Below, piece by piece: positions 9,821 to 57,103 of a stretch of 64,000 nt of DNA; the first letter of the stretch is position 1, and the number at the start of each line of letters is the position of its first letter. Source of the stretch: an uncultured Bacteroidales bacterium (GTDB lineage: Bacteria > Bacteroidota > Bacteroidia > Bacteroidales > SZUA-534). The position numbers were made by a program, and so were the translations under genes. Below the pieces are notes generated by a model. The model saw nothing but the letters and a program-made list of their open reading frames with translations. It was not told where the DNA came from and did not search any database. Location of the stretch: contig CADASL010000007.1 of NCBI GenBank assembly GCA_902790595.1, forward strand, positions 30,200 to 94,199. The letters run 5' to 3'.

Positions 9821-10465
9821 ATGGAAAACGCATTAGTTTGGTTAAAAAGAATCAGGAACACAATCGGGTTCCTTGGTATGTTACTTCCCTGGATAGCACT
9901 GTTGGGAACATTTTTGGCATCAAAACATATTGATATAACTCCTACTTTTTGGAAGGAACTTTCCATTTCAGCCACCTACTATGTTACCCCGGCTCTTACT
10001 GGAATACTGACAACGGCTGCTGTTGTTTTAATATGTTATTATGGATATGGTCCAGAAGACGACATTCCAACTACCGCAGCGGGTGTATTTGGGTTAATGA
10101 TCGTACTATTTCCTTGCAGCTGTGACCTTTCTGCTGGTAAAATTGTAGGTTTCTTTCAATTGCAAGCTGAAACATCTCACATCATACACTGTATATCTGC
10201 GGTTTGCTTCTTTCTGTTACTTTCTTATATCAGTCTTTTCTTGTTTACCAAAAGCTATCCTGACAAGGAACAAACCGCACAAAAGAAGACGAGAAACAAA
10301 ATTTATATTACCTGCGGAATCGGAATGCTGGCGGCTTTAATCCTAATGCCCCTGCACATAGATTTTTACGCAAAGACTTTTATTGTAGAGGCAATCGCAC
10401 TCACCTTCTTCGGCATAAGCTGGCTTGTGAAAGGACAAGTGTTCGGGCTTTTTGCGGATAAATAA
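9821..10465 (+). CDS. Multi-pass membrane protein of unknown function
   Basis: About six hydrophobic helices. ATG at 9821 (MENALVWLKRIRN). Its last 24 codons are duplicated at 14101-14175. Confidence 0.7.
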   Translation: MENALVWLKRIRNTIGFLGMLLPWIALLGTFLASKHIDITPTFWKELSISATYYVTPALTGILTTAAVVLICYYGYGPEDDIPTTAAGVFGLMIVLFPCSCDLSAGKIVGFFQLQAETSHIIHCISAVCFFLLLSYISLFLFTKSYPDKEQTAQKKTRNKIYITCGIGMLAALILMPLHIDFYAKTFIVEAIALTFFGISWLVKGQVFGLFADK

Positions 10466-10468
10466 TTG
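10392..10468 (+). repeat. Left copy of a 77-nt direct repeat (3' end of the membrane-protein gene)
   Basis: Recurs at 14102-14178, offset 3710 nt. Over the 74 nt of the repeat up to and including the stop codon, 69 positions are identical. Confidence 0.9.
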
Positions 10469-10512
10469 TTGCATAACGGCAATTATGAGTCGAAAAACAC
10501 AGCAGGAGTATT

Positions 10513-11154
10513 ATGAATAATCCGTGGGAAGAGATCAGTTTGGACGATTATGAGAATCATATGAGCCTTGATTCCGTAAAACAACTCCAAGCTATGAATA
10601 AAATAATGGAGGAACAGTTTGATGCATATCCTGCTTCCACGGCTATGGTGCTTGGTGTTGCCGGAGGAAATGGCTTGGAACATATAAGGCGGAATAAGTA
10701 TCAGACCGTTTATGGCGTGGATATTAACGGAGATTATCTTCGCACGGTTTCGGAAAGGTATGCCGACCTGTCGGATGTGCTGAAGTGTTTGAAGATAGAC
10801 CTAATCTATGAAACGGATAAGCTTCCCGAGGCGCAGCTGCTGATAGCAAATCTTCTTATCGAGTATATTGGTTATGATGTATTTCAGAGAGTGATCCGTA
10901 AAGTGAATCCTGAATATGTGTCTTGTGTGATTCAGATTAATACGGATGATAAGCAGTGGGTATCAGATTCGCCTTATCTACACGCTTTTGACAGGCTTGA
11001 TGAGGTACATCATCAGATGGACGGGAATCTTCTTTCGACAAAATTGATGGAGATAGGGTATAAAGAGATACTTCAAAAAAGGACCGCACTTCCTAATGGA
11101 AAGGCATTATTAAGAATGGATTTCATAAAAGGACAACAAACAAAGGAGGAGTAA
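10513..11154 (+). CDS. Class I SAM-dependent methyltransferase
   Basis: VLGVAGGNGLEHI glycine-rich SAM motif followed by the acidic YGVDIN loop. AGGAG lies 4 nt upstream of the ATG. Confidence 0.75.
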   Translation: MNNPWEEISLDDYENHMSLDSVKQLQAMNKIMEEQFDAYPASTAMVLGVAGGNGLEHIRRNKYQTVYGVDINGDYLRTVSERYADLSDVLKCLKIDLIYETDKLPEAQLLIANLLIEYIGYDVFQRVIRKVNPEYVSCVIQINTDDKQWVSDSPYLHAFDRLDEVHHQMDGNLLSTKLMEIGYKEILQKRTALPNGKALLRMDFIKGQQTKEE

Positions 11155-11703
11155 ATGATACTATTAGTTGTAGATACCCAAAAGGGCTGTTTTGACGAAA
11201 GGTTATATTCGTTTGAAAGGGTAAGAAAAAATATAAAACAGTTAATTACTATAGCAAGAGAGAATAATGTTGAGGTTGTATATGTTCAGCACGATGACGG
11301 CCCTGGTTCTGGTCTGGACAAAGCAACGGATAACTATGAGATATATGAAGATTTTGCACCGAGGAAAGATGAAAGGCGTTTTGAAAAGAATGTAAACAGT
11401 GCTTTTCATCCTATGACAGGATTGACAGAATATCTGCAGTCTAAGGGGGAAAAAGATATTATAACAATCGGAGTGTCAACAGATTATTGTATGGATGCAA
11501 CGATTAAAAGCGGTTTTGAAAAAGGCTTCAACTTATTTGTTCCTTCATACACAAACTCAACCTATGATAATCCGTATTTTGATAAGGAAACTGCCTACAA
11601 GTATTTTAATGAATTTATGTGGGGAACACGTTATGCGAAGATAATTACTGTTGAACAAGCTATCCAACTTTTACAATCCAAAATATCAACTACGGATATA
11701 TAA
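11155..11703 (+). CDS. Isochorismatase-family cysteine hydrolase
   Basis: LLVVDTQ (Asp), EKNVNSAF (Lys) and VSTDYCMDAT (Cys) form the family triad pattern. The ATG directly abuts the upstream stop, and AAGGAGG lies 5 nt upstream. Confidence 0.8.
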   Translation: MILLVVDTQKGCFDERLYSFERVRKNIKQLITIARENNVEVVYVQHDDGPGSGLDKATDNYEIYEDFAPRKDERRFEKNVNSAFHPMTGLTEYLQSKGEKDIITIGVSTDYCMDATIKSGFEKGFNLFVPSYTNSTYDNPYFDKETAYKYFNEFMWGTRYAKIITVEQAIQLLQSKISTTDI

Positions 11704-11755
11704 ATAGTATTACGAACTAATAGAAAGTAATTTAATAGTTGGGCTTGTTTTGCAA

Positions 11756-12307
11756 ATGATTTACGTCAAAGCCACATCAAACCAAATTGATGAAATAATG
11801 GCGGTTTATTCCGCGGCCATAACCGCGATGGAAAATTCGGGCATTCACCAATGGGACGAGATTTATCCTGACAAAACCACTATTGCCAACGACATTTGCA
11901 AAAATCAAATGTATGTCGGAATAATTGACAATAAAATTGCCGTTTGCTTTGCGTTGAGTGAAGATTGCGACGAACAATATAAAAACGGCAAATGGGCATA
12001 CCCTAACTCAAAATTCTGTGTTATTCATCGATTGTGCGTCTCGCCCGAGTTTCAGCATAAGGGAATTGCGTCTCAAGCAATGTCATATATCGAAAAACTT
12101 TGTAAATCTGTTGGATACAATTCAATCCGTTTAGATTGTTTTACACTCAATCCGTATTCAAAAAGACTTTATGATAAGGCTGGTTACAAAGTAGTCGGTT
12201 ATGCGGATTGGCGCAAAGGCAGGTTTGAATTGAGAGAGAAGATTCTCCAAAATCTCGCCGCCGCTCGCCAAAAAGCCACGTCCCGAACCGATAATACGGC
12301 TTTGTAA
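11756..12307 (+). CDS. GNAT family N-acetyltransferase
   Basis: RLCVSPEFQHKGIASQAM acetyl-CoA-binding motif A (Q/RxxGxA). ATG at 11756; the ORF-track start at 11750 is TTG. Confidence 0.85.
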   Translation: MIYVKATSNQIDEIMAVYSAAITAMENSGIHQWDEIYPDKTTIANDICKNQMYVGIIDNKIAVCFALSEDCDEQYKNGKWAYPNSKFCVIHRLCVSPEFQHKGIASQAMSYIEKLCKSVGYNSIRLDCFTLNPYSKRLYDKAGYKVVGYADWRKGRFELREKILQNLAAARQKATSRTDNTAL

Positions 12308-12689
12308 AACGCTGATTATCATTGGCATTGGGAATGTTGCTGTTTTGGTACACATTAATAATCAGCCAATTAGCTCCACAAAACAGATTTTATGGCGTTT
12401 TTCCGATTCTATTTTCAGCAAAAAATCAAAAAAATCACAAACGTTTGAATCGTGTTTATAACACTGAATATCAGAGTGTAACAAAACGGCAACACTGTTA
12501 AGATTTTGTCATTGCAAACCACTTATCAATTTGAATATCAAAAACATAAATAGCAACACACATTTAAAAACACTGAACGTCAAATTGTTAACTGCGTTAG
12601 ATTTGTCAGTGACAAGTTCAGAGAACGGAACAGAATTGTTTTGTAAAGATTTTAAAACGTAAATAATAACATTAGAGAGGTTTTTTATT

Positions 12690-14093
12690 ATGCAAGAGAA
12701 TTTTTTTGAATCAGTATCAAAGCCATTGAGGAATAAATTGATATTTGAGATGGCGAAAGAGTATGCATTTGATTATATAGATGGAATTTCAGAGCGGAAT
12801 GTGTATCCAAAGGAGGAGGATTTACTAAAGCTTAAGAGTTTTTATGAACCTCTACCTCAAATCGGTACAGATGAAGAGGAAATTTTGTCAACGCTTCATC
12901 TGAATGGTTCGCCCAATACATTAGCGCAGACCGGTGGAAGATATTATGGATTTGTGAATGGCGGTGCGTTACCGGTCACACTTGCAGTCAGGTGGCTGAC
13001 TGATGTTTGGGATCAGAATTCCGTACTCTATGTTGCATCACCTGTTGCAGGCGTAATTGAAGAAGTATGTGAGAAATGGATTGTTGATTTATTTGAACTT
13101 CCCGCAGAAACTGCGATGGGATTGGTGGGCGGTTCTTCGGATGCTTCTCTATGTGCACTGACCGTTGCACGAAATACCATATTGGAACGTAACGGCTACA
13201 ATATTTATGAAAATGGATTAATGGGTGCCCCTGAGATTCGTGTTGTATTAAGTGAAAATGCTCACGCAACCATCTTCAAAGCCTTATCTGTTTTGGGAAT
13301 CGGTTCCAAGAATATAATCAAGGTTGAGTCAAATCCGGATGGGACAATGCGTTTGGATAAGTTGCCTGAATTAGATGAAAAAACGATTCTGATTCTTCAA
13401 GCCGGCAATGTAAATACAGGAGCATTCGATCAGTTCGATACACTCTGTGATCTGGCCAATGAAAAGAATGCCTGGATCCATATTGATGGAGCGTTTGGAC
13501 TATGGGCAAAAACAAGCAAGGTATATGCTTATCTGGCAAAGGGAATGGAAAAGGCTACTTCGTGGTCTGTCGATGCACATAAAACATTAAATGTTCCATA
13601 CGATTGCGGAATTGTTCTTTGCAAATACCGGGATGCTTTCTGCAAAGCATTACAAGCAAATGGAGCCTACATCATTTACAGTGGGAAACGAGATGGTATG
13701 CTATATACAACGGCTATGTCAAGAAGAGCAAGAGCTTTCGAATTGTGGGCTGCAATTAAGTACTTAGGCAAAGAAGGAATTGCAACTCTTGTGGAAACTC
13801 TTTGTAGGAATGCAAAAACCTTTGCCGGACGACTGTCACAACTTGGATTTACGATACTGAATGATGTTGTGTATAATCAAGTACTGATACAGTACGTAGA
13901 TGATGAGATGACAAAACGTGTTCTTGAATATGTGCAAAATGATCGTGTGTGCTGGTGTGGCCCGACACAATGGAAAGGAAAAATGGCAATCCGATTAAGT
14001 GTATGCTCTTGGGCGACCACGAAGGAAGATATTGAATTGTGTGTCGATAGTTTTAAAAGAGGAATTGAATATACAAGAGAGAATATCTTTTAA
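12690..14093 (+). CDS. PLP-dependent group II (aspartate aminotransferase fold) decarboxylase
   Basis: 467 aa. SVDAHKTLNVPYDCG carries the PLP-lysine motif (S-x-D-x-H-K) of group II decarboxylases. GAGAGG lies 9 nt upstream of the ATG. Confidence 0.8.
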   Translation: MQENFFESVSKPLRNKLIFEMAKEYAFDYIDGISERNVYPKEEDLLKLKSFYEPLPQIGTDEEEILSTLHLNGSPNTLAQTGGRYYGFVNGGALPVTLAVRWLTDVWDQNSVLYVASPVAGVIEEVCEKWIVDLFELPAETAMGLVGGSSDASLCALTVARNTILERNGYNIYENGLMGAPEIRVVLSENAHATIFKALSVLGIGSKNIIKVESNPDGTMRLDKLPELDEKTILILQAGNVNTGAFDQFDTLCDLANEKNAWIHIDGAFGLWAKTSKVYAYLAKGMEKATSWSVDAHKTLNVPYDCGIVLCKYRDAFCKALQANGAYIIYSGKRDGMLYTTAMSRRARAFELWAAIKYLGKEGIATLVETLCRNAKTFAGRLSQLGFTILNDVVYNQVLIQYVDDEMTKRVLEYVQNDRVCWCGPTQWKGKMAIRLSVCSWATTKEDIELCVDSFKRGIEYTRENIF

Positions 14094-14100
14094 TGTTTAA

Positions 14101-14175
14101 ACAATCGCTCTCACATTCTTCGGCATAAGTTGGCTTGTGAAAGGACAGGTGTTCGGGCTTTTTGCGGATAAATAG
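14101..14175 (+). pseudogene. Displaced 3' fragment (24 codons plus stop) of the 9821-10465 membrane-protein gene; right copy of the direct repeat
   Basis: Translates in frame to TIALTFFGISWLVKGQVFGLFADK*, against AIALTFFGISWLVKGQVFGLFADK* in the intact gene. There is no upstream coding continuation. Confidence 0.85.
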
Positions 14176-14297
14176 TTGCGCAACCATAAAATTGGCAAGC
14201 CTTGCTGATTGTGTACGGCATAATCGCCCTTGATATTAACGAATATCGCGGCGGAATCGGCTAAAAATTCATTGATTCCGCCCTTATTCTTAACAAT

Positions 14298-14345
14298 CGC
14301 GGCGGAATCGAGCAAAAAATCGTCGATTCCGCCGCGTTTTTTTTT
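14298..14345 (+). terminator. Rho-independent terminator; second of two tandem hairpin modules
   Basis: CGCGGCGGAATCGA...TCGATTCCGCCGCG stem of about 14 bp followed by a T-run of about 10. A weaker copy of the module lies at 14246-14283. Confidence 0.75.
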
Positions 14346-14377
14346 GCTAAAGACGAAAATAGTTTGTCATTTATGAC

Positions 14378-15595
14378 TCATTTGTAAATTACCCAATCGA
14401 ATTGTGGTTTAGCAATATAATTTCCTTGCTTGTCAATTATGCCCCATTTATTATTTACTTGAACAAAAATGATATTGTTGTATGTTTTTAAGAAATCAAA
14501 ACGAGGGGTTATAACTATTTCACCCTTTTTATTGATACACCCGTATTTGTTTTTTAATTTAATACGAGCCAAGCCATTATCTTCAAAATCCCAAGCATTA
14601 TCAAATTGCAGCCTAATAACTACCTTCCCGTTTTTATCAATAAATCCATGCTTGTCGTTTAGTTCCACATGGGCTATCCCATTGTTTGCATAATCCCAAG
14701 CATAGTCATATTGTAAATCGACTACCATTTTGCCTGTTTTGTCAACAAATCCATATTTGTCATTTAATTTGACAACAGCCAAGCCAATGCTTGTAAAATA
14801 CTCTGCCCAATCGAATTGTGGTTCAATAACAATTTTTCCGTTTTCGTCAACATATCCCCATTTACCATCTATTTTTACACGAGTCAAGTCTGTGTCTTTA
14901 AAATTCCCAGCATCGTCAAATTGGGGTTCGATAACGATATTACCGGTTTTATCAATAAAACCTATTTTGCCTCTTAATAATACGCGCGCCAAACCATTGT
15001 TTGAAAAAGGAGAAGCATAGCCGAACATCGGTTCGATAACCATTTGACCGGTTGTATCAACGTATCCCCAAAGTCCCTTACGAACGGAAGCCAATCCATT
15101 ACTAAAAGAAGATCCAGTGAAAAACTGCGGCTCAACGACCATTTTACCGGTTTTATCAATAAATCCCCATTTACCATCTTTTTTCACAAATGCCAAGCCA
15201 ACGTCATAATAATCTATAGCATCATCAAACTGTGGTTTAATAATTATTTCACCGGTTTCGTCTATATATCCATATTTCCCACTTGATTTGACAAGAGCCA
15301 AGCCACTGTTTGAAAAATTAGAAACCCTGTCAAACTGTGGCTCAATAACGGTTTTGCCTGTTTTATCGACAAATCCATATTTGCCATCTAATAATATACG
15401 AGCCAACCCGTTATTAGGAAAATAATAAGCATCGTCAAATTGCGGTTTGATAATCCAATTGCCTTTCTTGTCGATATAGCCACTCTTACCATCAATTCCG
15501 GCAGGAATTAATAAATTGTCACTATTAGTGTTTTGTCCAGTGGCAAAATTTGCAGTAACAAACAGCAAACAGAGCGTTAAAATATTAGGTTTCAT
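14378..15595 (-). CDS. WG-repeat (KWG) protein, secreted, about 11 tandem 35-aa repeats
   Basis: Signal peptide MKPNILTLCLLFVTANFATGQ, then repeats of the type GKYGFVDKTGKxVIEPQFDxAxxFSNNGLARVKL. The locus is AT-rich. Confidence 0.85.
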   Translation of the reverse strand: MKPNILTLCLLFVTANFATGQNTNSDNLLIPAGIDGKSGYIDKKGNWIIKPQFDDAYYFPNNGLARILLDGKYGFVDKTGKTVIEPQFDRVSNFSNSGLALVKSSGKYGYIDETGEIIIKPQFDDAIDYYDVGLAFVKKDGKWGFIDKTGKMVVEPQFFTGSSFSNGLASVRKGLWGYVDTTGQMVIEPMFGYASPFSNNGLARVLLRGKIGFIDKTGNIVIEPQFDDAGNFKDTDLTRVKIDGKWGYVDENGKIVIEPQFDWAEYFTSIGLAVVKLNDKYGFVDKTGKMVVDLQYDYAWDYANNGIAHVELNDKHGFIDKNGKVVIRLQFDNAWDFEDNGLARIKLKNKYGCINKKGEIVITPRFDFLKTYNNIIFVQVNNKWGIIDKQGNYIAKPQFDWVIYK

Positions 15596-15846
15596 TCTTT
15601 TATATGCACAAAATTTAGTATTAGAACAATTAAGGTTTTTATATTAATATGTAACATTAAAACACAATAATAGGAAAAATATCTTTTAAGAATGCTATAT
15701 ACTTGCTACATGATAAAGTATTTGTAACCCCAAACCTAAATTCGTTGAAAAAATCCGTTGTCTGTAGTCCGAAGTCTATTGTCCCGAAAAAAACTGCGTC
15801 ATTAAAAGAAAATTTATAATTTGCCGTTCATTAAAAACCGACGATT

Positions 15847-17046
15847 ATGAATTATATACTCTTCGACGACAGCACTTGGGACGAATTGCTTCCCTTGACC
15901 TTCACTCGGCCGACAGCCGAAATCCGTGTGGGAATTCTGACCATTCGCGAGAAGTGGGAAAAATATCTGGCTGGCGAGCCATTGTCGTACTGCACAAGGC
16001 CGCATCTGCGGGCAAAGTTCCCAATGACGGTTGGTGCCGACAATATTTTCATCAACGGCACGGTGATTCCGACGGCCGAACTGCTGGCCGAACTCGAGGA
16101 ACTGCAACCTGGGCAGGCGCTGGTGTGCGACGATTCGGTGACGGCCATCCGTTTGGATAAGGCGCAGGCCGAACGCTTCGACCCGACACGCATCGCCTTC
16201 AAGGACTATACGCAGCAAATATCTGAATGTCATCGCGTTGAGCATCTGTCAGACATCTTCCGCAACAACGGCGACGCCATTGAGCACGATTTCCGCATCA
16301 TCACCAAAGGGCGCAAATCGGCACAGTTGAGCGCCACAAACCGCATCATCGGCTCGGGCGACATTTTTGTTGAGCACGGCGCGGTGGTTGAGTGCTGCAT
16401 TCTGAACACCACCAACGGCCCCATCTACATCGGTCGCAACAGCGAGATTATGGAAGGCTCGTGCATCCGCGGGCCGTTTGCGCTCTGCACGGGCTCGGTG
16501 GTGAAAATGGGCGCGAAGATTTACGGGCCGACAACCGTGGGACCGCACTCGAAGGTGGGCGGCGAACTGAACAACGTTGTGATTTTCGGCAACAGCAACA
16601 AGGCTCACGACGGATTTTTGGGCAACACCGTGGTTGGCGAATGGTGCAATTTCGGCGCCGACACCAACTGCTCGAACCTTAAAAACGATTATTCCGAAGT
16701 GCGCCAATGGAACTATCCTGCGGGGAAATTCATCAAGACGGGGCTGCAGTTCTGCGGCCTTGTAATGGGCGACTACAGCCGCACGGCCATCAACACAATG
16801 CTGAACACGGGAACGGTGGTTGGCGTGGGCGCAAACATCTATGGTTCAGGCTTTCCGCGGAATTTTGTGCCATCGTTTATGTGGGGCGGTTCGGCTGGAT
16901 TCAAGCCCTGTACGCCCGAAACGCTGTGCCAAGTTGCCGAACGTGTTCTGGCTCGCCGAGGCCTGCAGTTGAGCGACATCGACCGCCAACTGATTGCCGA
17001 CGTCTTCGGCTTGACCGCGAAATACAGAGGAGGATATAAGAGTTAA
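15847..17046 (+). CDS. GlmU-like sugar-phosphate nucleotidyltransferase / left-handed beta-helix (hexapeptide) family protein
   Basis: The C-terminal half is rich in hexapeptide-type repeats (IGRNSEIMEGSCIRGP, VGPHSKVGGELNNVVIFGNS). The N-terminal region is nucleotidyltransferase-like. Confidence 0.65.
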   Translation: MNYILFDDSTWDELLPLTFTRPTAEIRVGILTIREKWEKYLAGEPLSYCTRPHLRAKFPMTVGADNIFINGTVIPTAELLAELEELQPGQALVCDDSVTAIRLDKAQAERFDPTRIAFKDYTQQISECHRVEHLSDIFRNNGDAIEHDFRIITKGRKSAQLSATNRIIGSGDIFVEHGAVVECCILNTTNGPIYIGRNSEIMEGSCIRGPFALCTGSVVKMGAKIYGPTTVGPHSKVGGELNNVVIFGNSNKAHDGFLGNTVVGEWCNFGADTNCSNLKNDYSEVRQWNYPAGKFIKTGLQFCGLVMGDYSRTAINTMLNTGTVVGVGANIYGSGFPRNFVPSFMWGGSAGFKPCTPETLCQVAERVLARRGLQLSDIDRQLIADVFGLTAKYRGGYKS

Positions 17047-17049
17047 AAG

Positions 17050-17103
17050 GTTAGAGTTTAGAAGTTTAGAAGTTAAGAAGATTAGAAGTTGAGAGTTAAG
17101 TGT
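17050..17103 (+). repeat. Degenerate purine-rich octamer tandem repeat (TTTAGAAG-like, about 7 units)
   Basis: GTTAGAGTTTAGAAGTTTAGAAGTTAAGAAGATTAGAAGTTGAGAGTTAAGTG, followed at 17121-17152 by a pyrimidine-rich array (AACTAACACCTAATCCCCAACACCTAACACC). Confidence 0.6.
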
Positions 17104-17158
17104 TCCGAATGAATTTTCCCAACTAACACCTAATCCCCAACACCTAACACCATTGAAT

Positions 17159-19566
17159 ATGAGTTCGAAAAAAGAAATAAAGATTGAAGGGATAATGGCG
17201 TCGGACGGTGACGGAATGGAGGCGAGTTTTATTCCGATTATGTCGGAAGGCGGCCACCCGAATGAGAGGATTGAGATTCCTGACGAACTGCCAATCCTGC
17301 CGCTGCGCAATATGGTTATCTTTCCTGGCGTGCTGATTCCTATCAGCGTCGGGCGCGAAAAATCGCTCAACGCGATTTCAACGTGGAGGACCCCAAGCCT
17401 GAAGATTTGTACAATTACGGCACTATTGTGCAGATTGTCAAGATATTGGAAATGCCCGACAACACCACCACAATCATTGTTCAGGGCAAGCGTCGGTTTG
17501 TAATCAACAATTACATTGCGACGGAGCCGTACTGCACCGCCAACATTTCCGTCATCGACGAAGTGCTGCCCGACAACAGTCAACTTGCCGAATTTGAGGC
17601 TATTACAAGTTCGATTCGCGACTTGTCGTCGAAGATAATCCAAATGACGCCTGGAATGCCGAACGAGGCGGTTTTCGCTTTGCGCAACATCGAGAACGCC
17701 TTCTTCCTGATAAATTTTGTGTGCGTCAACACCGCCATCAACACCGAGGCGAAACAGGAACTGCTTGAGGAATCGAACGTTTTCAATCGCAGCGTCAGGT
17801 TGCTCGAACTGCTGTCGCAGGAAATGCAAAAGGTTCAACTTAAGGAAGATATACAATCGAAAGTGCGGGCCGAACTCAACAAGCAGCAGCGCGAGTTCTT
17901 CCTGAACCAACAGATAAAAACCATTCAGGACGAGTTGGGCGGAAACCCCACCGAAAAAGAAGCCAAAAACCTGAAAGACAAGGCGAAACAGAAAAAGTGG
18001 AGCAAGGAAATGGCCGATTATTTCGACAAGGAGATTGAAAAACTGCAACATCTGAACGCCGCTTCGGGCGAATATTCAATCCAACTCAACTATCTGCAAA
18101 CGCTGCTCGATTTGCCGTGGGGCGAGTACACCGACGACAATTTTGATATGAATCGCGCACGCGAAATACTTGACAGTCAGCATTGTGGACTTGAAAAGGT
18201 GAAGGAGCGCATTCTGGAGCACCTGGCCGTTCTGAAACTCAAAGGCAATCTGAAATCGCCCATTCTGTGCCTTTACGGCCCGCCTGGAGTGGGCAAAACA
18301 TCGCTCGGGCGGTCGATTGCCGAGGCGCTTGGGCGAAAATATGTGCGAATGTCGCTGGGCGGCCTGCACGACGAGGCCGAAATCCGCGGACACCGCCGCA
18401 CCTACATCGGTGCAATGCCTGGCCGCATCATCGAGAACATCAAAAAAGCCAAGTCGGCCAACCCCGTTTTTGTGCTCGACGAGATTGACAAGGTGTCGAA
18501 CGACTATCACGGCGACCCTGCGTCGGCTCTGCTCGAAGTGCTTGACCCTGAGCAAAATGGCGCATTCCACGATAATTATCTCGACGTTGATTTCGACCTG
18601 TCGAACGTAATGTTCATTGCCACGGCCAACAGCGTTGCGCCCATCAGCGCGCCCCTGCGCGACCGTATGGAAATGATTGAGGTGAGTGGCTACGTAATTG
18701 AGGAGAAAATTGCCATCGCGCGGCAGCATCTGATTCCGAAACAGTTGAAAGAGAATGGTTTGGAGCAGCATCCGTTTGCTATGGACGACGCTTCGCTCAC
18801 CTACCTGATTGCCAACTACACCCGCGAGTCGGGTGTGCGCGAACTCGACAAGCGCGTGGCCGAGATTTCGCGGAAGATTGCCAAAAAAATCGTCTTTGGC
18901 GAGCCCGTGCCCGAAAACCTGACGCCCGAAAACATTGTCGAATATCTTGGCAAACCCATCTATTCGCCTGATATGTACGACGATAACCGCTTTGCGGGCG
19001 TTGTCACAGGACTTGCGTGGACGGCCGTGGGCGGCGACATCCTTTTCATTGAGACAAGCCTGAGCCGCGGCAAGGGAACGCTCACGCTAACAGGCAATTT
19101 GGGCGACGTTATGAAGGAGTCGGCCACTCTGGCGCTGGAGTACATCAAGGCGCACGCCACCAAATTCGGCCTGAAACCTGAAATTTTTGAGAAGTGGAAC
19201 GTGCACATCCACGTGCCCGAGGGTGCCATTCCGAAAGACGGCCCGTCGGCAGGCGTAACAATGGTGACGTCGCTGGCGTCGGCGTTTACGCAGCGCAAGG
19301 TGCGCAAGGCTCTGGCAATGACGGGCGAGATTACGCTGCGCGGCAAGGTCCTGCCCGTTGGCGGCATCCGCGAGAAGATTCTGGCCGCCAAACGCGCTGG
19401 CATAAAAACGGTGATTCTGTGCGAGCAGAACCGCAAAGACATTGAGGAAATCAAACCCGAATATATCGAAGGCGTTGAGTTTATATATGTTAGCACAATT
19501 GAGGAAGTGCTGCAAAACGCGCTGCTGGAGGAGAAGGTTGAGGGGGCGATAGAGATTACGGTTTAA
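17159..19566 (+). pseudogene. lon: ATP-dependent Lon protease, reading frame broken near 17378-17385
   Basis: The start of the N-domain (LPILPLRNMVIFPGVLIPISVGREKSLNAI) is in one frame and stops at 17503. The rest (VEDPKPEDLYNYGTIVQIVKILEMPD..., Walker A GPPGVGKTS, protease DGPSAGV) is in another frame from 17383. The span 17159-19566 is 2408 nt, which is not a multiple of 3. Confidence 0.7.
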
Positions 19567-19603
19567 GAAAACATTGATTATATATCCAAATTTGTATCAT
19601 ATT

Positions 19604-20164
19604 ATGAGTAACAAACCCATTGGAAAAATAAAGACAGTTAAAATCATAGTTTTTGCATTACTTTATTTGTTATCTGGTTTTATTTTATCTATGGTACCAT
19701 ATTGGTCTGGAGAACGCGATGGTTGTGGTCTCTTGCTTTGGATTTTTACTGTTATACCATTTCTATTTTTTCTTATTGCTACTTTAATTGTTGCCATTCT
19801 CGCGTTAAGAAATATTTGGAGGTATTCTTTTAGCAAAGTAATACTAATCGGTTCAACAATCACTTTTTGGCTTAATTGGGTGTTGCTCCTTTCCTATGGT
19901 ACTATTATACCATTTCTATTTTTTCTTATTGCCGCTCTAATTGTTGCCATTCTCGAGTTAAAAAATATTTTTGAGTGTTCTTTTAGCAAAGCAATACTAA
20001 TCGGTTCAACAATCACTTTTTTGCTGATTTGGCTGGTGTCACTTTGCACTAATAATTATATACCCGAATATTTTATTAGAACAGCATCATTTTGGAGTTG
20101 GGTATTATATTTTACAATGCCTGCCATTTATTATGGGCTCGCAAAGTTATTATTCCGAGATTAG
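19604..20164 (+). CDS. Small multi-pass membrane protein with an internal duplication
   Basis: ATG at 19604 (MSNKPIGKIK). Hydrophobic helices. IIPFLFFLIA(T/A)LIVAIL...SFSK(V/A)ILIGSTITF occurs twice. AT-rich. Confidence 0.55.
   Translation: MSNKPIGKIKTVKIIVFALLYLLSGFILSMVPYWSGERDGCGLLLWIFTVIPFLFFLIATLIVAILALRNIWRYSFSKVILIGSTITFWLNWVLLLSYGTIIPFLFFLIAALIVAILELKNIFECSFSKAILIGSTITFLLIWLVSLCTNNYIPEYFIRTASFWSWVLYFTMPAIYYGLAKLLFRD
19752..20023 (+). repeat. In-frame tandem duplication, two units of about 119 nt with a 153-nt period
   Basis: 19752-19870 against 19905-20023 is about 90% identical by eye. Confidence 0.8.
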
Positions 20165-20216
20165 CCGTTTTCACCCTAAAACTTAATGTTTTAGCATAAT
20201 GATAAACTGCATTTAA

Positions 20217-20354
20217 ATGAAAACCCCATTCACCATATTAAAGTGGTTATTCATTTCATTAGGCGCTATATTTTTAATCCTTAATATTTTAGCGCTAACG
20301 CCCGCGCCATTTTATATGCACCGCAGTCTTGAAAAAAACTCAAAAAAATTTTAA
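20217..20354 (+). pseudogene. Truncated 5' copy (45 codons) of the DUF218/YdcF-like gene at 21630
   Basis: Hand translation gives MKTPFTILKWLFISLGAIFLILNILALTPAPFYMHRSLEKNSKKF*. This matches ..VKWLFVSFGAIFLILNILALTPAPFYMHRCLGED.. of the intact gene. The DNA repeat is 20240-20329 against 21677-21766. Confidence 0.8.
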
Positions 20355-20422
20355 ACCTGCGCAGCAATCTCGCGTAGGTTGCAATTTCCTTTGCACACAT
20401 AAACTTTAAAAACAAAAGAATT

Positions 20423-21154
20423 ATGGAAATGACAAGTGAGTGGGCTGAGAGCGAGTGCAGAATCGCCTGCAAGGGTGAGAACCCAAAGTTTAATTTCGAT
20501 GGTAACGAGTTCGACAGCAGATGTGAGAGTTACAAGTCAGCGTTGAAGGCGTTCAAGTCTTTGATGGAAGATGAGCGAAAAGAAATGGATTTCGATTTCA
20601 CGAAGTCCATACTGAACAGGCTGCTGGAAGGCAAGCCGTTGACACCGATAACTGAAAATGACTTTGTTGAGGGTAAAGGTCATATCGTATCGGATGAGTT
20701 TTTAAAGCGTTGCGGTTTGAAATCGTTCATACAATGCACAAGGTTGCGCAGTCTGTACAGAGAGGAGACGTCGGGTGGAGAAGTGCGGTACAGAGATGCG
20801 GAGAGAAGTTACTTTGTTGATGTGGACAATCCGTCACGCACCTACTTCACCGACTGCGAGTTCTTTGATGAGATGTTTCCGATAACGCTGCCGTATATGC
20901 CTGCGGTAGAGCCTTACAAGATATACGAGCGTACATTCTTGACTGATGAAAAAAACGGTGAGTTTGACACAAGGAATGTTATGTACGTGATAACACCGAG
21001 TGGCGAGAGAGTTGATTTGAACTTGTACTTCACGGAGGTTGATGGAAAGTGGAAACAGATAACGAAGGATGAATACGAAGAGTTGTGGAGCAAGCGCGTG
21101 GACAAGGCTAGTGACGATGACTACAAGGAATCGAAGAAAGACTGTGCAAAATAG
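20423..21154 (+). CDS. Hypothetical protein, 243 aa, acidic, no recognised domain
   Basis: Clean ORF inside the repeat-bounded segment. I recognise no motif in it. Confidence 0.55.
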   Translation: MEMTSEWAESECRIACKGENPKFNFDGNEFDSRCESYKSALKAFKSLMEDERKEMDFDFTKSILNRLLEGKPLTPITENDFVEGKGHIVSDEFLKRCGLKSFIQCTRLRSLYREETSGGEVRYRDAERSYFVDVDNPSRTYFTDCEFFDEMFPITLPYMPAVEPYKIYERTFLTDEKNGEFDTRNVMYVITPSGERVDLNLYFTEVDGKWKQITKDEYEELWSKRVDKASDDDYKESKKDCAK

Positions 21155-21197
21155 TGTTTATCTTTGAAGAAAGGAGTTGCGAAAAAAACAGTAAAAA

Positions 21198-21617
21198 ATG
21201 AACCTGCAAAAACTTGAGAAATTTATTGACCGTCAAAAAGTTAGCATTGTGGCTTCAATTGATGATGAAGGCTTTCCGAACTTGAAGGCGATGCTCAAGC
21301 CGCGCAAGCACGTGGGGCTGAGGGAGTTCTATTTTTCCACCAACACTTCGTCGATGCGCGTAAGGCAATATCAGGACAATCCAAAAGCGAGTATCTATTT
21401 CTACCACAAGGGTTTGATTCGCTACGAGGGCGTTATGCTCATTGGCAAAATGGCGGTTCTGACCGACCAAGAAAGCAAAAACTCAATTTGGAAGCGCGGC
21501 GACACAATGTTTTACAAAGGCGGCGTCACCGACCCCGACTATTGCGTGCTGAAATTCACCGCCGAAAGAGGTCGATACTACTGCGACCTGAAAACGGAGA
21601 GTTTTGAAATTGAATAA
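21198..21617 (+). CDS. Pyridoxamine 5'-phosphate oxidase-like FMN-binding protein (general stress protein 26 type)
   Basis: FPNLKAMLKP...FYFSTNTSSMRVRQYQDNPKASIYFY...IWKRGDTMFYKGGVTDPDYCVLKF is the split-barrel PNPOx-like pattern. Confidence 0.75.
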   Translation: MNLQKLEKFIDRQKVSIVASIDDEGFPNLKAMLKPRKHVGLREFYFSTNTSSMRVRQYQDNPKASIYFYHKGLIRYEGVMLIGKMAVLTDQESKNSIWKRGDTMFYKGGVTDPDYCVLKFTAERGRYYCDLKTESFEIE

Positions 21618-21629
21618 TTGCCTAACGTT

Positions 21630-22355
21630 ATGCGATTTGCAGCGGACATAAAACTAAAACGCACTATTGCCGCCGTAAAGTGGCTGTTCGTTTCGTTTGG
21701 CGCTATATTTCTAATCCTAAATATTTTAGCGCTAACGCCCGCGCCATTTTATATGCACCGCTGTCTGGGCGAGGATTCGGCGTGGAATAGCGATTCGACA
21801 ATCAAATTCCGTCCCGACTACGTTGTTATGTTCGGCGGCGCGGGAATGCCGTCGGGCAGCAATCTGATAAGGCTTTACTACACGGCCGAGTTTGCGCGAA
21901 ATTTGCATACGCCCGTTGTTCTTGTCCACCCGCAAGACTCTGTCTGTCAGGCTGAAATGACGAAATATCTTGTCCGCAGCGGCCTTGCGCCCGACAGCAT
22001 TTTTTATATGACTGGCGGAAGCAACACGCGCTCGCAGTCGGTCTGCCTTGCCGACAGTTTTCCGCAGTTGCGCAGCGTCAATTTACTGATAATCACCGCA
22101 CCCGAGCACCTTGCCCGAACCTTGAAATGCCTAAAACGGTGCGGCTTTAAAAGCATTCGTGGCATTGGCGCGTTCGAGAGCACCGTCAATTTTGACCTTA
22201 CGCTCGACAAGCGGAAACTAAAAGGAAATCAGCTCGTTCCTGACGTTGAGAGCACCAATCTGCGATACACGTTCTGGAACTATCTTCAACTCGAAATCGT
22301 CTGCTTCCGCGAGTATTTCGCAACAGCGTATTATTGGGTGAAGGGGTGGATATAA
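21630..22355 (+). CDS. YdcF/ElyC-like DUF218 family protein
   Basis: N-terminal TM helix, then the YVVMFGGAGMPSGSNLIRLYY block typical of DUF218. ATG at 21630. Confidence 0.7.
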   Translation: MRFAADIKLKRTIAAVKWLFVSFGAIFLILNILALTPAPFYMHRCLGEDSAWNSDSTIKFRPDYVVMFGGAGMPSGSNLIRLYYTAEFARNLHTPVVLVHPQDSVCQAEMTKYLVRSGLAPDSIFYMTGGSNTRSQSVCLADSFPQLRSVNLLIITAPEHLARTLKCLKRCGFKSIRGIGAFESTVNFDLTLDKRKLKGNQLVPDVESTNLRYTFWNYLQLEIVCFREYFATAYYWVKGWI

Positions 22356-22387
22356 AAAAGCCCAATTCACGCAGAATCGGGCTTTTA
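22354..22387. terminator. Bidirectional terminator between convergent genes
   Basis: A-run, AGCCCAATT...AATCGGGCT (8 of 9 bp paired), then a T-run. Confidence 0.55.
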
Positions 22388-22406
22388 TTCAATTATTCAA
22401 ATTCCA

Positions 22407-25894: not shown

Positions 25895-26205
25895 AATCAG
25901 TGATTTAACAATAAATTGATTTTCTGTTTCAAAAATTTTGTGCAAGATAATCGAACTTTTGGAAGTTCTCAAGGTTTTATCGTTTGCGTAATGATTCGTA
26001 TCGATTTCGTTAAAACTGCGTGTAAAATGCGAAATTTCTCGCGAAATCTGACGGCAACTTTCCGACACCAATTGGTTTTAACGGCCCTTAGTGCGCCCGA
26101 CATTCACGTTGTCATTTTATAAACCTCCTAAAATCAACGCGTTATCTTTAGGTTGATTTTATTCAAAAAAAAGCCTCGCGGATTATTGCCATTTTAAGTT
26201 TTTTC

Positions 26206-26213: not shown

Positions 26214-26220
26214 CACCGCT

Positions 26221-26386: not shown

Positions 26387-26394
26387 TTTTGTTG

Positions 26395-26786
26395 TGGAGC
26401 TGCCGGGATTTGAACCCGGGTCCAGACAAGGAAACCATGAGCTTTCTACACGCTTAGCTCTGACTTGGTTTTCGTGCGCCGGCCGGATCAAAGCCACCTA
26501 CCAACGCCTTATCCTCAAAATCTCACCCGCATTACGAGGCTAATGCGAGCCAGTCCCGAATTGCTGCACATCAGAATCGGCGAGCCTCAAGACAAGGGCT
26601 TCCGCGATGCGTCTTGTCCCAGCTCCTTGAGCTGGGATTAGGCCAATCTACTATACTTCGATTAGGCGGCAAGAGCGTAAGAATTTTCGCCAGTTATAGT
26701 TTTGTGTCCGGGATTTACGGGCCGGTTTCACTGCTCCCGACGTGCTTACCCACCACTTCATCTTGCTGTCAAATCCAATCAACCCC
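26395..26786 (-). ncRNA. ssrA: tmRNA (SsrA), tag peptide GENSYALAA
   Basis: On the minus strand, the 5' end GGGGTTGATTGGATTTGACAGC pairs with the 3' end CAGCTCCA (tRNA-Ala-like acceptor with a G-U pair), and GGATTTGAACCCGG forms the T arm. The resume/tag region GGCGAAAATTCTTACGCTCTTGCCGCCTAA encodes G-E-N-S-Y-A-L-A-A-stop. Confidence 0.9.
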
Positions 26787-53876: not shown

Positions 53877-54028
53877 AGTTATATGGTTATCAATTTTCCG
53901 ATTTGAAAGATAGAAATAATTTTTTTCAAAAAAAATCGCACCTAGCTGCAACCTTTCCGCGTAAATTGCATCATTATATCAGAAAAAAGGGGCAAAAGCC
54001 TCGTAGTACTAACTAAAAAACGAATATA

Positions 54029-54490: not shown

Positions 54491-54544
54491 CCGATGTAAG
54501 ACACACTGAAATACATAGTTGAAAGTTTAATAATGATTGATGGG

Positions 54545-54577
54545 TCCGGTGGCGCATTTGTCACCGGATTTTTTTTT
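54545..54577 (+). terminator. Rho-independent terminator
   Basis: TCCGGTG...CACCGGA stem followed by T9. Confidence 0.75.
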
Positions 54578-54656
54578 GCGCTAACAACACATTCGCATTA
54601 CGAGTTCTTGACCGATTATACTCTCAATCGACGGAAAGCAATGAAGGCGCCCTACA

Positions 54657-54707
54657 TCAGGGCACCCAATCGTGCTTGAGCACGAAGGGAAATGCCGCCT
54701 TTGCAGA
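54657..54707 (-). pseudogene. Displaced 3' remnant of a homolog of the 55991-57103 outer-membrane gene
   Basis: The minus-strand frame reads ..SAKAAFPFVLKHDWVP*, compared with ..SAFDYTYAFTFVLKPDFVLWRR* at the end of the intact gene. The DNA core AATCG(T/G)GCTTGAGCACGAAGG is 20/21 identical between 54668-54688 and 56011-56031. Confidence 0.7.
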
Positions 54708-54730
54708 TTTCGCCACACGTTTCAGAATAA

Positions 54731-54799
54731 ATTATGCGCTTTACATTATGCGAATCACATAATTCGATTTGCATAATTCGAATCGCATAATTACATTTG
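54731..54799 (+). repeat. 14-bp-periodic repeat array: 2x ATTATGCG followed by 3x CATAATT (inverse orientation), overlapping a TACATTTG -7 element
   Basis: ATTATGCG at 54731 and 54745. CATAATT at 54758, 54772 and 54786. TACATTTG at 54792-54799, ending 27 nt before ATG 54827. Confidence 0.7.
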
Positions 54800-54826
54800 C
54801 GAAACAGATTTTAAAACATCCTGGCT

Positions 54827-55951
54827 ATGGAAAATCCTTTTGTTGTCGTTGGGAAAATACCCGACAAATACTTTTGCGACAGGGAAATGGAATCGAAAAA
54901 GATTATCCGTTCCATTACTAACGGGAATAATCTTGTCCTGATTTCGCTGCGAAGAATGGGAAAAACTGGGCTCATTCAGCATTGTTACGCTCAAAAGGAA
55001 TTAGAGGAACGATACTATACGTTTTTTGTGGATATTCTTCATACCGCGTCGCTGCAAGAATTCACTTTCGCTTTGGGGAAAGAAATATACAGGCAGATTG
55101 TTCCCAAAGGGAAAAAGGTCTCAATGGCATTTTTGCAGACCATTAAATCGATTGCCGGAAAATTCGGCATCGACCCCGCTACGGGTTTGCCTGCATTCAA
55201 TATCGATTTGGGTGATATTGAGAAGCCGGAACTTACTTTGGAAGAAATATTCACCTACCTGGAACAAGCCGACAAGCCGTGTATTGTGGCAATTGACGAG
55301 TTTCAGCAAATACATAAATATCCCGAGAAAAATATTGAAGCTTTGTTGAGAGGGCACATTCAAAAAATGCGGAATTGCCGGTTTATTTTCGCAGGAAGCG
55401 AGCGAAGCATAATGCAGAATATGTTCCTGAATTCCACCCGCCCCTTCTATCAAAGCGCCGACATAATGGAATTAAACGAGATTCCATTTGACGTGTATTG
55501 CGAATTTATTGTTAAGCAATTCAACAACAATGGTATAGCAATCGCTGCGGACACCGTGAAATACATTTACGACACGTTTGAAGGACACACGTTTTACATA
55601 CAAAAAACGTGTAATGAGGCGTTCTCGATAGTCGAAGGCAATGAATGTTCGTTGGGCATTGTGAAACAGGCCATTATGAATATTATTATTGATAAGGAAC
55701 CGACATATAAAGAGATTCTTTCGAACATATCCGACAAGCAGAAAATGGTTTTTTACGCCATAGCGAAAGAAGGTGCGGCAACACAAGTAACATCGTCGTC
55801 GTTTATAAAAAAACATAATCTGCCATCGGCAAGTTCGGTGCAGTCTGCTATGCAGAAACTAATTGAAAAAGGCGTTGTTACGGAACGAAACAAAGAGTTT
55901 ATTGTCGTGGACAGGTTTTTAGGATTATGGATTAAGGACGTTCTACTGTAG
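54827..55951 (+). CDS. AAA-type ATPase (archaeal-ATPase/DUF234-like family)
   Basis: Walker A LISLRRMGKTGL and Walker B-like CIVAIDEFQQI; 374 aa. Confidence 0.75.
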   Translation: MENPFVVVGKIPDKYFCDREMESKKIIRSITNGNNLVLISLRRMGKTGLIQHCYAQKELEERYYTFFVDILHTASLQEFTFALGKEIYRQIVPKGKKVSMAFLQTIKSIAGKFGIDPATGLPAFNIDLGDIEKPELTLEEIFTYLEQADKPCIVAIDEFQQIHKYPEKNIEALLRGHIQKMRNCRFIFAGSERSIMQNMFLNSTRPFYQSADIMELNEIPFDVYCEFIVKQFNNNGIAIAADTVKYIYDTFEGHTFYIQKTCNEAFSIVEGNECSLGIVKQAIMNIIIDKEPTYKEILSNISDKQKMVFYAIAKEGAATQVTSSSFIKKHNLPSASSVQSAMQKLIEKGVVTERNKEFIVVDRFLGLWIKDVLL

Positions 55952-55990
55952 CCGCCGACAATAAACATCCTGTTTTAAGAATTTTATGCC

Positions 55991-57103
55991 CTATCGCCGC
56001 CAAAGCACAAAATCGGGCTTGAGCACGAAGGTGAAGGCGTAGGTGTAGTCGAACGCTGAGTTTTTGAGGTCGTAGTAGCCGACGGCGGTCAAAGCGGCTG
56101 TGAAATAATTGGTTATCTCTTTGGCGAGATTCAGTTCGGCGGTGAGCATACTGCGGCGTTTCTGGTCGGTGGCGCCGTCGTACGAGAGGCTCATATACAT
56201 TGGGTTGCCTTGTTGGGTAATTAAACCGTCGGCAAGCCAATAGCCAACTGTCAGGCTGCTTTGGCCGTGCATCAGACTCACATCGGACAGCCAACCCCAA
56301 CCGCTGTGGTAGAGGCTTTCGGGCGTTGGCGAATTGTCTTTGTAACCAATCACTTGCGACGACGCGCCAATGCCGCTTACAAAACCGCTGGTGTGGCGAG
56401 TGAGCTGCGCGCCGCCCGAGACGTAGTAGAACAGCCGCATCGGGGTGGTGTCGGTATCTATCTGCCCGCCACGGTGGAAAATGGTGAACGAAGCGGGCAA
56501 CTCAACTTCGAGAGCATCGGTCTGCAAAGCCTTCCAACCAACCGACAGGCCACCGTAAATCTGCTCTTTCTTGTTGTCGTCGTGGAAGATAAAGTCCTGC
56601 CAATCGACCCACACATCAGTAAAAAGGCGATTGGTGTTGTACAGAATCTGCATTCCGTTCTCGTAGTTGTTGGTGAGTTGGCGCTCGCGGAACATAATGG
56701 GTTCGGGCAGGCGATGGAACGACGCGCCGTCGATTGTGCCCATTGTGACGGCCAACTTGTTGGTGTGCCAAGTGACGGAATAGACTGGCAGACAGTCGGT
56801 AAACTTGTCGAGGCCCGAGTATTTGGTGAGCCGCACACCCGCCTTCGCCTTTATGTTTGGCGAAAAATGGTACTCGAGCGCTGGCTGCAGATTGTAGCCA
56901 ATAAGTGTGTAGCCTTCAACTATCGGACCAAAGAACTCGTTGTTCCAAAGGAAGTTATAGTTGTCAATGGTCAAATGCAGCGCCGCCGAATCGGCCTTCA
57001 GCAACCGCTCAACATCGCTCTCGGCGGAAAAATACTGCGCTGTGGTAGCGCCTGGAATTAGAAAAATATAAATCGCTATAACAGCGTCCCGTAAATATCT
57101 CAT
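55991..57103 (-). CDS. Putative outer-membrane beta-barrel protein
   Basis: Signal peptide (IYIFLIPGATTAQ). Alternating aromatic/polar beta-strand pattern throughout. No recognised family. Confidence 0.55.
   Translation of the reverse strand: MRYLRDAVIAIYIFLIPGATTAQYFSAESDVERLLKADSAALHLTIDNYNFLWNNEFFGPIVEGYTLIGYNLQPALEYHFSPNIKAKAGVRLTKYSGLDKFTDCLPVYSVTWHTNKLAVTMGTIDGASFHRLPEPIMFRERQLTNNYENGMQILYNTNRLFTDVWVDWQDFIFHDDNKKEQIYGGLSVGWKALQTDALEVELPASFTIFHRGGQIDTDTTPMRLFYYVSGGAQLTRHTSGFVSGIGASSQVIGYKDNSPTPESLYHSGWGWLSDVSLMHGQSSLTVGYWLADGLITQQGNPMYMSLSYDGATDQKRRSMLTAELNLAKEITNYFTAALTAVGYYDLKNSAFDYTYAFTFVLKPDFVLWRR

Follow-up and report, generated by a model that had tools for sequence, protein, structure and literature searches.

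The window analysed here is a 64-kb stretch (contig CADASL010000007.1) of the core region of an uncultured rumen member of the Salinivirgaceae (Bacteroidales), carrying a ribosomal protein operon and the genes for valyl-tRNA synthetase and Lon. At three places in it a gene end occurs twice, and accessory genes lie between the two copies (Table 1). At locus 1, an intact DUF998-like membrane gene is followed by a low-GC cassette, whose last gene encodes a pyridoxal phosphate (PLP) decarboxylase (PLP-DC), and then by a second copy of its own 3' end; at locus 2, a 5' fragment of a DUF218/YdcF gene precedes a Tad3-domain gene, a PNPOx-like gene and the intact DUF218 gene; at locus 3, an ATPase_2 gene separates a short relic from the intact Lipid_A_deac-family gene whose 3' end it repeats. 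The original prediction read these as cassettes docked at ordinary gene ends. Comparison with related strains points elsewhere: the window is probably a mosaic from recombination of co-occurring rumen Salinivirgaceae strains, with one homologous side and one illegitimate join, in the manner of homology-facilitated illegitimate recombination (HFIR).

The same strain is also present as an ENA scaffold (L001/L083) that is 99.7% identical to the window. Other sequences for comparison came from a GTDB scan (L003-L005), from context look-ups of homologues (L084-L127) and from a metagenome scan using the membrane-gene end motif (L128-L133).

Three duplicated gene ends

Self-BLAST of the window detects two of the repeats directly: R1 pairs 10377-10468 with 14087-14178 (89% identity over 92 nt, E=7e-28) and R2 pairs 20239-20329 with 21676-21766 (91% over 91 nt, E=5e-30). 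R3 is shorter, with 28 of 34 positions identical between 54662-54695 and 56005-56038, and misses E<0.01 in that search. When compared in a targeted way, it scored 22 against a null maximum of 12 and lay above 200 of 200 shuffles, and in L118-L124 as many as 31 nt of the fragment still match the window gene's 3' end exactly (E=2e-7 by self-BLAST within L118). Because it beats all shuffles and has this exact match, R3 is a genuine, decaying relic of ~38 nt. R1-R3 are the sole dispersed non-paralogous repeats within the window (by self-BLAST for R1 and R2). All three duplicated gene ends of the original prediction are therefore real, and in every pair, as it also held, one copy completes an intact gene (DUF998-like membrane, DUF218/YdcF or Lipid_A_deac-family) and the other is a dead end. 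The R1 fragment opens with ~18 scrambled nt that include an in-frame stop, the R2 fragment has its own ATG at 20217 and a 45-aa dead-end open reading frame (ORF), and the R3 relic would read ..AFPFVLKPDFVL before its stop, ending 10 nt short of the present gene's end.

The copies differ mostly by synonymous changes, namely five of five differences in the last 72 nt of R1 and five of the nine nucleotide differences in R2, against ~22% expected at random; each copy had thus been a functional allele of its own strain during this divergence, before the two met. An assembly artefact is unlikely, since the junctions share no long k-mer, the copies have diverged, and seven independent assemblies contain locus 3.

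The junction at locus 1

From SASA to the end of PLP-DC the window follows L128, with identities of 97.2% in SASA, 98.5% in the membrane-gene body, 98.4% in the 213-aa and isochorismatase genes, 98.2% in GNAT and 98.8% in PLP-DC; identity then falls to 94.5% in NTP_transf_4, with the break at 14084/5. The flanks of locus 1 thus have different ancestries (98.5% on the left vs 94.5% on the right), and past this junction, J1, the next structural break relative to L128 does not come before the junction of locus 2, J2. To the right of J1 the match is to L129, in which the 3' end of an intact membrane gene is contiguous with the GCGCAACC spacer and the double hairpin (87.9% identity to the window over 280 nt), and whose NTP_transf_4 is 96.4% identical to that of the window. 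The terminator hairpin also lies 3' of the intact membrane gene in L085/L086 and occurs at a single place in the window. We considered it as a dispersed element resembling repetitive extragenic palindromes and tied to the Y1 transposase, and rejected this, the hairpin being found at one slot only.

L128 and the more distant L101-L105 have an identical junction of PLP-DC to NTP_transf_4, with no fragment, terminator or WG-repeat gene (the last is missing from L003, L005, L101 and L128), so the fragment-free arrangement is the older one and the cassette predates the fragment. Relative to L128 and L101, J1 removes the last PLP-DC codons and a spacer of ~36 nt, and a 7-nt microhomology (AAACAAT) is possible there. 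The PLP-DC protein ends in RENIF in the window, in REKNLN in L101 and L128, and in KKNEK in L093; an L093-type gene is the probable source of PLP-DC. Given the L128 lineage up to the PLP-DC end, the contiguity in L129 and the switch at 14085-14103, the R1 fragment is not an att site of the cassette; we interpret it as the truncated leading end of another strain's DNA. The imported stretch would consist of the last ~90 nt of a membrane gene, its terminator, and the sequence from the WG-repeat gene onward, joined illegitimately to a cassette-bearing chromosome.

The junction at locus 2

Two gene orders meet at J2. In L003, Lon is followed by a small membrane gene and a DUF218 gene of the MKTPFTIL (MKT) type; in L130 it is followed by two small genes, Tad3, PNPOx and a DUF218 gene with an alternative N-terminus. 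Microhomology at J2 is at most 1-2 nt, homology to L004 and L130 beginning at 20331-20333. Most DUF218 homologues are 233 aa long and start with MKTPFTILKWLF, as the window fragment does. P0121 and P0126, at 95% and 79% identity to the window gene, natively carry the long alternative N-terminus, and the intact window protein shows 95% aa identity to P0121 vs at most 88% to proteins of the MKT type.

In the genomes of P0121 and P0126 (L087-L092) the genes for PNPOx, the alternative DUF218, GH97 and an alpha-L-arabinofuranosidase are contiguous, at 93.5% identity to window 21195-25950, and no fragment is present. Since PNPOx and the alternative DUF218 adjoin each other both there and in L130, the apparent right-hand junction of locus 2 is ancestral contiguity, and the locus has one novel junction. 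In its DUF218 body the window sides with the PNPOx-linked type, evidence against a crossover within the 91-nt repeat; the R2 fragment belongs to the other gene-order type, that of L003.

A discrete mobile module of Tad3 and PNPOx was also considered, its borders (20331-21619) being the same in the window and L004. It was rejected on the contiguity of PNPOx and DUF218 in L087-L092 and L130; its left border is simply J2. Tad3 and PNPOx are both present in L004 and L130, and L087-L092 have PNPOx without Tad3; L085, a possible empty site for the module of L004, diverges directly 3' of its 188-aa gene.

Two observations concern the genes of this locus in their own right. The 186-aa membrane protein gene contains a 153-bp tandem duplication (19747-20052, 84-88% identical), and its L003 homologue encodes 128 aa. 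The 243-aa protein of 20423-21154 passes the curated cutoff for Pfam Tad3, a family of type I Thoeris inhibitors (E=5.5e-10); its gene is chromosomal, and phage genes were not seen near it.

Locus 3

In L118-L124 (96% identical), as in the window, the features run M23 peptidase, 153-aa gene, relic, ATPase_2, Lipid_A_deac gene, RuvB, which gives the architecture of locus 3 in seven independent assemblies. Other strains have the order RuvB, Y1_Tnp, Lipid_A_deac, Tmk, NUDIX, without the ATPase; ATPase_2 adjoins the Lipid_A_deac gene in L118-L124 and is absent from this L109/L125-type order. Homology between the two orders stops exactly at the stop codon of the gene, which marks a rearrangement breakpoint there. 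Locus 3 is older, and fits the same scheme as loci 1 and 2. ATPase_2 as a self-mobile unit with conserved ends was considered and rejected, the window and L129 proteins sharing 28% aa identity over 112 residues and their termini differing.

Directly upstream of the Lipid_A_deac gene lies an IS200-like Y1 transposase gene (57213-57662), the one transposase-like gene of the window. Its region (57213-57811) includes a repeat of ~97 nt upstream of the gene; in L109 (4053-4987) this repeat occurs as three direct copies and one inverted copy around the Y1 gene, and in L118-type strains (L118 4502-5083) an unrelated 193-aa gene occupies the position of the transposase.

Table 1. Features of loci 1-3, in window coordinates
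Feature	Coordinates	Strand	Basis and remarks
Locus 1: membrane gene, DUF998-like, intact, hypervariable	9821-10465	+	ORF; 1263 homologues; last ~90 nt = R1 copy 1 (10377-10468)
Locus 1: resident low-GC accessory block	10469-14084	+	Pfam matches; in L101-L105 and L128 without any fragment
Locus 1 cassette: 213-aa gene	10513-11154	+	
Locus 1 cassette: isochorismatase	11155-11703	+	Pfam
Locus 1 cassette: GNAT	11756-12307	+	Pfam
Locus 1 cassette: PLP-DC, last codons altered	12690-14093	+	Pfam
Junction zone J1	14085-14103	.	Three-way alignment; L128-type sequence ends in last PLP-DC codons, L129-type membrane-gene tail starts
R1 copy 2, dead-end 3' fragment of another membrane-gene allele	14086-14178	+	Match contiguous with intact gene in L129
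Native downstream region of donor-type gene: GCGCAACC.., two terminator hairpins (14250-14282, 14301-14333) and T-run	14179-14345	+	
WG-repeat protein gene, strain-specific cargo on the fragment's side of J1	14378-15595	-	Pfam PF14903
NTP_transf_4 and Lon core block, conserved, proposed homologous anchor	15847-19566	+	Collinear in all relatives
Locus 2: 186-aa membrane protein gene, L003-type gene order	19604-20164	+	Others have 217/196-aa and 188/176-aa genes there
R2 copy 1, 5' fragment (ATG + 113 nt) of MKTPFTIL-type DUF218 gene	20217-20329	+	20165-20329 94.4% identical to L003
Junction J2	20329/20330	.	Three-way alignment; L003-type meets L130/L004-type sequence 5' of Tad3-like gene
Tad3-domain gene	20423-21154	+	Pfam
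PNPOx-like gene	21198-21617	+	Pfam
DUF218/YdcF gene, intact, alternative N-terminus MRFAADIKLKRTIAAV	21630-22355	+	Holds R2 copy 2 (21676-21766)
Locus 3: R3 relic, ~38 nt of Lipid_A_deac-family gene 3' end	54660-54698	-	Stops 10 nt before that gene's stop-codon position
ATPase_2 (PF01637) gene between relic and intact gene	54827-55951	+	Pfam
Lipid_A_deac-family gene, intact	55991-57103	-	R3 copy at 56000-56038

Probable recombination between strains

J1 and J2 bracket a block (14086-20329) that runs from fragment 1 through the terminator, the WG-repeat gene, NTP_transf_4, Lon and the 186-aa gene to fragment 2. Each locus has a single novel junction, at ~14085-14103 and at 20329/20330, with affinities established on either side of it. 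Both joints are non-homologous with few matching nucleotides (possibly 7 at J1, at most 2 at J2), and at J1 the recipient lost a little sequence, the PLP-DC codons and spacer mentioned above. The two parental gene orders exist separately in relatives, as L128/L101 and L129/L085 for locus 1 and as L130/L087 and L003 for locus 2; the part of the original prediction that looked to a related strain as the source of the DNA is supported. Strains of one clade carry different accessory genes around the same core genes.

We propose that DNA of another strain would pair with the chromosome through the conserved NTP_transf_4-Lon block, by ordinary homologous recombination. The non-homologous end of the incoming DNA would stop inside the donor's neighbouring gene and be joined to the recipient where the sequences are not homologous and microhomology is slight or absent, a process that would be HFIR or a close variant of it. 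The truncated donor piece would persist as a dead-end fragment, and the recipient's own intact gene would stay a few kb off, behind older accessory genes; with a surviving fragment and an intact recipient copy, the outcome mimics a cassette bracketed by direct repeats. The donor order would have been membrane gene, terminator, WG-repeat gene, NTP_transf_4, Lon, 186-aa gene, DUF218 (MKT), and the recipient order membrane gene, cassette, NTP_transf_4, Lon, two small genes, Tad3, PNPOx, DUF218 (alternative). Either two events or one imported tract of 6.2 kb (14086-20329) may have been involved.

Several points weigh against this scheme. We infer the homologous crossover on the other side of each import, the choice between one tract and two events, the route of DNA entry, and the direction of transfer at locus 2, which is ambiguous since Lon shows no ancestry break; Lon is also too conserved for the homologous crossover points to be located. 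The best match to the central block is 96%, so that a near-identical donor is not among the sampled strains. For two scars to lie round one block, two rare events are needed, or a single event illegitimate at both its ends; HFIR is rare when measured in the laboratory, and natural transformation is not known to be established in Bacteroidales. At locus 3 the relic is bounded on both sides, and neither an empty site nor the predicted donor or ancestral arrangement, in which the 153-aa lipoprotein gene would be convergent with a Lipid_A_deac gene ending in KPDFVL, was found among the genomes compared. In L129 (reverse strand), a frameshifted ATPase_2 gene (PF01637) lies between 56-nt direct repeats of the hairpin (89% identical, oriented 1381-1436/2951-3005), a fourth cargo bracketed by duplicated local sequence, and one for which a Campbell origin is conceivable. 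All sequences compared are metagenome-assembled genomes (MAGs) or metagenome contigs.

Alternative explanations

A single crossover yields the final layout seen here, a repeat on either side of the cargo and the gene completed by one of the two, and circular DNA bearing ~40-90 nt of a host gene end could have entered by such an additive (Campbell) crossover, using host general recombination. One illegitimate join per locus, the closure of the circle, would suffice, and the mismatches between the R2 copies are concentrated within the first 23 nt of copy 2, as if its left part were foreign. In such an event, however, resident sequence lies outside the repeats and the newcomer between them, and loci 1 and 2 are not built so. 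At locus 1 the left flank, gene body and cassette are of one ancestry and the right flank of another, the fragment-free junction of L128 and L101 makes the cassette older than the fragment, and the L101-like part of the membrane gene (from ~10350 on) starts ~25 nt upstream of the repeat; at locus 2 the DUF218 body and the genes downstream are of the PNPOx type, not the fragment's type, and the supposed right junction is ancestral. Nor do two novel borders stand against a matching empty site, the left side of locus 1 and the right side of locus 2 being contiguous in relatives. We regard a Campbell origin as unlikely, though it may apply to locus 3 and to the hairpin-flanked ATPase of L129. Very improbable, to our mind, is the related idea that gene ends serve as att docking sites for integrase-less cassettes, which a tyrosine or serine recombinase from another part of the genome would move in a cis-mobilisable or integron-like way. 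Direct repeats of 40-90 nt at gene ends do look att-like, the slot 3' of the membrane gene holds many different cargos, several of which begin 4-35 nt past the stop codon and end at the same point 5' of NTP_transf_4, and PLP-DC homologues ride on elements with a large serine recombinase. Against this, no motif is common to the three repeat pairs, J1 truncates a cargo gene, each locus has a single true border, and a metagenome pattern scan for the gene-end motif gave 6 loci, each with a single copy. Most slot states in relatives hold cargo without any duplication, the boundaries of the ~8 states are staggered and reuse no att core, and no imperfect palindrome of the attI/attC kind is common to the cassette borders, so that with no integrase present the elements fall outside integrons. 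Domain searches of the 64-kb window found no integrase or recombinase, in the enclosed genes or elsewhere, save the unrelated Y1 transposase gene, which lies outside the enclosed DNA. The original prediction was thus right that the enclosed DNA has no recombinase; the lack of a shared motif and the single border per locus speak against its docking sites at ordinary gene ends, and insertion of units between att-like copies is not supported at loci 1 and 2, either by a recombinase in trans or by a Campbell circle, which the relatives contradict there.

Duplication of the gene ends in place, as a long target-site duplication or a tandem duplication plus deletion with neutral decay afterwards, would account for one non-functional copy per locus and for the state of the R3 relic (28/34 in the window vs 31 nt exact in L118). 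It does not sit with copy differences that are mostly synonymous, nor with copies that each have their own nearest relative in other strains, with its own flanks; R1 and R2 contradict it, and we accord it scarcely any weight. That assembly has merged two co-occurring strains into a chimera is a thought invited by data drawn wholly from MAGs and metagenome contigs, by a 52-nt deletion in Lon relative to the same-strain ENA scaffold and by the mosaic-like L084 contig. Yet assemblers join at shared k-mers, and J1 and J2 lack such homology; PLP-DC with the junction-derived C-terminus is found on 3 contigs from NCBI and ENA, and locus 3 has its independent assemblies, all of which leave a chimera a slim chance.

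A variable slot beside the membrane gene

The slot between the membrane gene and NTP_transf_4 is hypervariable, with ~8 states among relatives: (i) empty (L005); (ii) a 114-aa ORF (L003/L133); (iii) a 75-aa ORF (L084); (iv) a UDG-like gene and a lipoprotein gene (L130/L131); (v) the terminator, then an EcoRI-type methylase with GmrSD/HNH (L085/L086); (vi) the terminator, then an ATPase_2 gene (L129); (vii) the cassette without GNAT (L101-L105); and (viii) the cassette with GNAT (L128/L132). The enclosed genes are accessory, as originally predicted, and differ between strains. Cargo starts after the membrane gene are staggered (+4, +15 and +35 nt), and among the compared slot states a second copy of the membrane-gene end occurs in the window and in no other.

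The cassette has a GC content of 38.6%, vs 47% for the window, and is old foreign DNA. PLP-DC (window 12674-14084) is 93% identical at the nucleotide level to a gene on low-GC (38.6%) mobile elements (L093-L100) that carry a large serine recombinase, an AEP-TOTE primase, a MobA/MobL relaxase and ABC, FtsX and two-component genes. The 90%-identity cluster of the isochorismatase includes proteins of Treponema MAGs (at least 90% identical). These sequence matches of PLP-DC and isochorismatase suggest recent gene flow across phyla in the rumen. GNAT and the noncoding stretch of ~370 nt 3' of it (11685-12674) are present in the window, L128 and L132 and absent in L101-L105; with this patchy segment, the cassette is itself a mosaic.

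The membrane gene varies strongly, relatives being 55-90% identical in 60-nt windows vs more than 91% in the flanks. Its mean identity of 87.7% to L101 raised the idea that the whole gene had arrived with the cassette; in 100-nt windows, the gene body is 66-72% identical to L101 vs 95-100% for the cargo, and L084 and L128 show the gene body resident in the SASA context, so this too was rejected. The L084 allele (region of window 9821-10340) is 100% window-type up to ~10220 and then 100% L003-type, by intragenic recombination or in a chimeric contig.

A further idea, which we think improbable, is that short conserved sequences beside variable slots are recurrent crossover anchors for additive capture by single crossover, independent of any recombinase. 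The membrane gene could supply two such anchors, its final ~90 nt and its terminator hairpin; the DUF218 start and the Lipid_A_deac end are further candidates. If true, this would be integron-like turnover without an integrase, and the four duplication-flanked cargos met in a small body of sequence, the ATPase_2 gene of L129 among them, would exceed ascertainment bias. The L129 case leaves such a recurrent additive process a small chance.

Other features of the window

A tRNA-Lys gene and tmRNA lie at 26.2-26.8 kb, away from all three loci. In L087/L088 (L087 12740-16726), homology to the window breaks off within the tmRNA gene's 3' end, after ~20 nt of it (window 26394-26413), and a block follows, absent from the window, that encodes two HTH_17 proteins and one AAA_25 protein; it is probably a classical integrative element.

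In Lon, 52 nt are missing at 17367/17368 relative to the otherwise 99.7% identical ENA scaffold L001, splitting the gene into ORFs 17153-17503 and 17383-19566; this is either a true polymorphism or an assembly difference. Positions 137-3917 hold an array of five paralogous TonB_C-domain genes with 64-76% nucleotide identity among themselves. A 175-aa gene (7020-7547; segment 6956-7552) between PPDK and SASA is absent in L005 and replaced by a different segment of ~460 nt in L128, and is thus a small strain-specific segment.

Significance

The analysis clears away a tempting but false idea, that cassettes dock at gene ends without an integrase, and illustrates that strain-level mosaicism can imitate att-flanked islands when one genome alone is read. 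It also offers a natural and well-resolved case, in an uncultured rumen member of the Bacteroidales, of probable recombination with one homologous and one illegitimate side, with both parental orders recovered from metagenomes. The hypervariable slot beside a fast-evolving membrane gene, whose states include a methylase and GmrSD pair and low-GC genes shared with other phyla, should be of use to studies of pangenomes and defence islands. The process is of a known kind, and the view of how accessory genes move between strains is unchanged.

Comparison with known systems

Integrase-bearing islands insert at the 3' ends of tRNA, tmRNA and protein genes, leaving direct repeats of tens of nt, one of which completes the target, with the cargo between them. 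The loci described here resemble these and cis-mobilisable elements in having direct repeats, one completing a gene, around accessory cargo; they differ in having no integrase, no conserved core, one true junction per locus and flanks of unlike ancestry. The block at the tmRNA 3' end in L087/L088, unlike loci 1-3, seems a real example of such an island. With integron cassettes the likeness is that promoter-proximal slots gather varied small cargo; here there is no IntI and no common attI/attC-like element, and boundaries are staggered.

The displacement arrays of effector-immunity genes at type VI secretion system (T6SS) loci of Vibrio cholerae (PMC5361080) have in common with our loci a conserved segment as anchor, orphaned remnants and no integrase. 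Displaced orphan modules at Vibrio T6SS and Rhs loci have been proposed as natural traces of HFIR (PMC5361080), which also cites Jackson et al. 2009 for orphan 3' ends at Rhs loci. There as here, plain scarless homologous replacement is the commoner outcome. The genes of our window are unrelated housekeeping and membrane genes, not polymorphic toxins, and the orphan pieces are 40-113 nt long, include no immunity gene and have no apparent selective reason to be kept.

HFIR itself, or 'illegitimate recombination assisted by homology', is attributed to de Vries & Wackernagel 2002, Prudhomme, Libante & Claverys 2002 and Meier & Wackernagel 2003, as cited in PMC2884548 and PMC5361080, and dimorphic loci of E. 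coli have been put forward as bearing natural traces of it (PMC2884548). The likenesses are that one end of the incoming DNA would be joined by homology and the other where homology is lacking, with 0-8 nt of microhomology; that the recipient shows a small deletion; that ~0.8-1.7 kb of foreign DNA is trapped beside the anchor; and that no dedicated recombinase takes part. Our case differs in being drawn from natural genomes, not experiment, and in having two scars flank one anchor block; moreover, the trapped end here holds part of a gene present in the recipient as well, and this gives the impression of flanking repeats.

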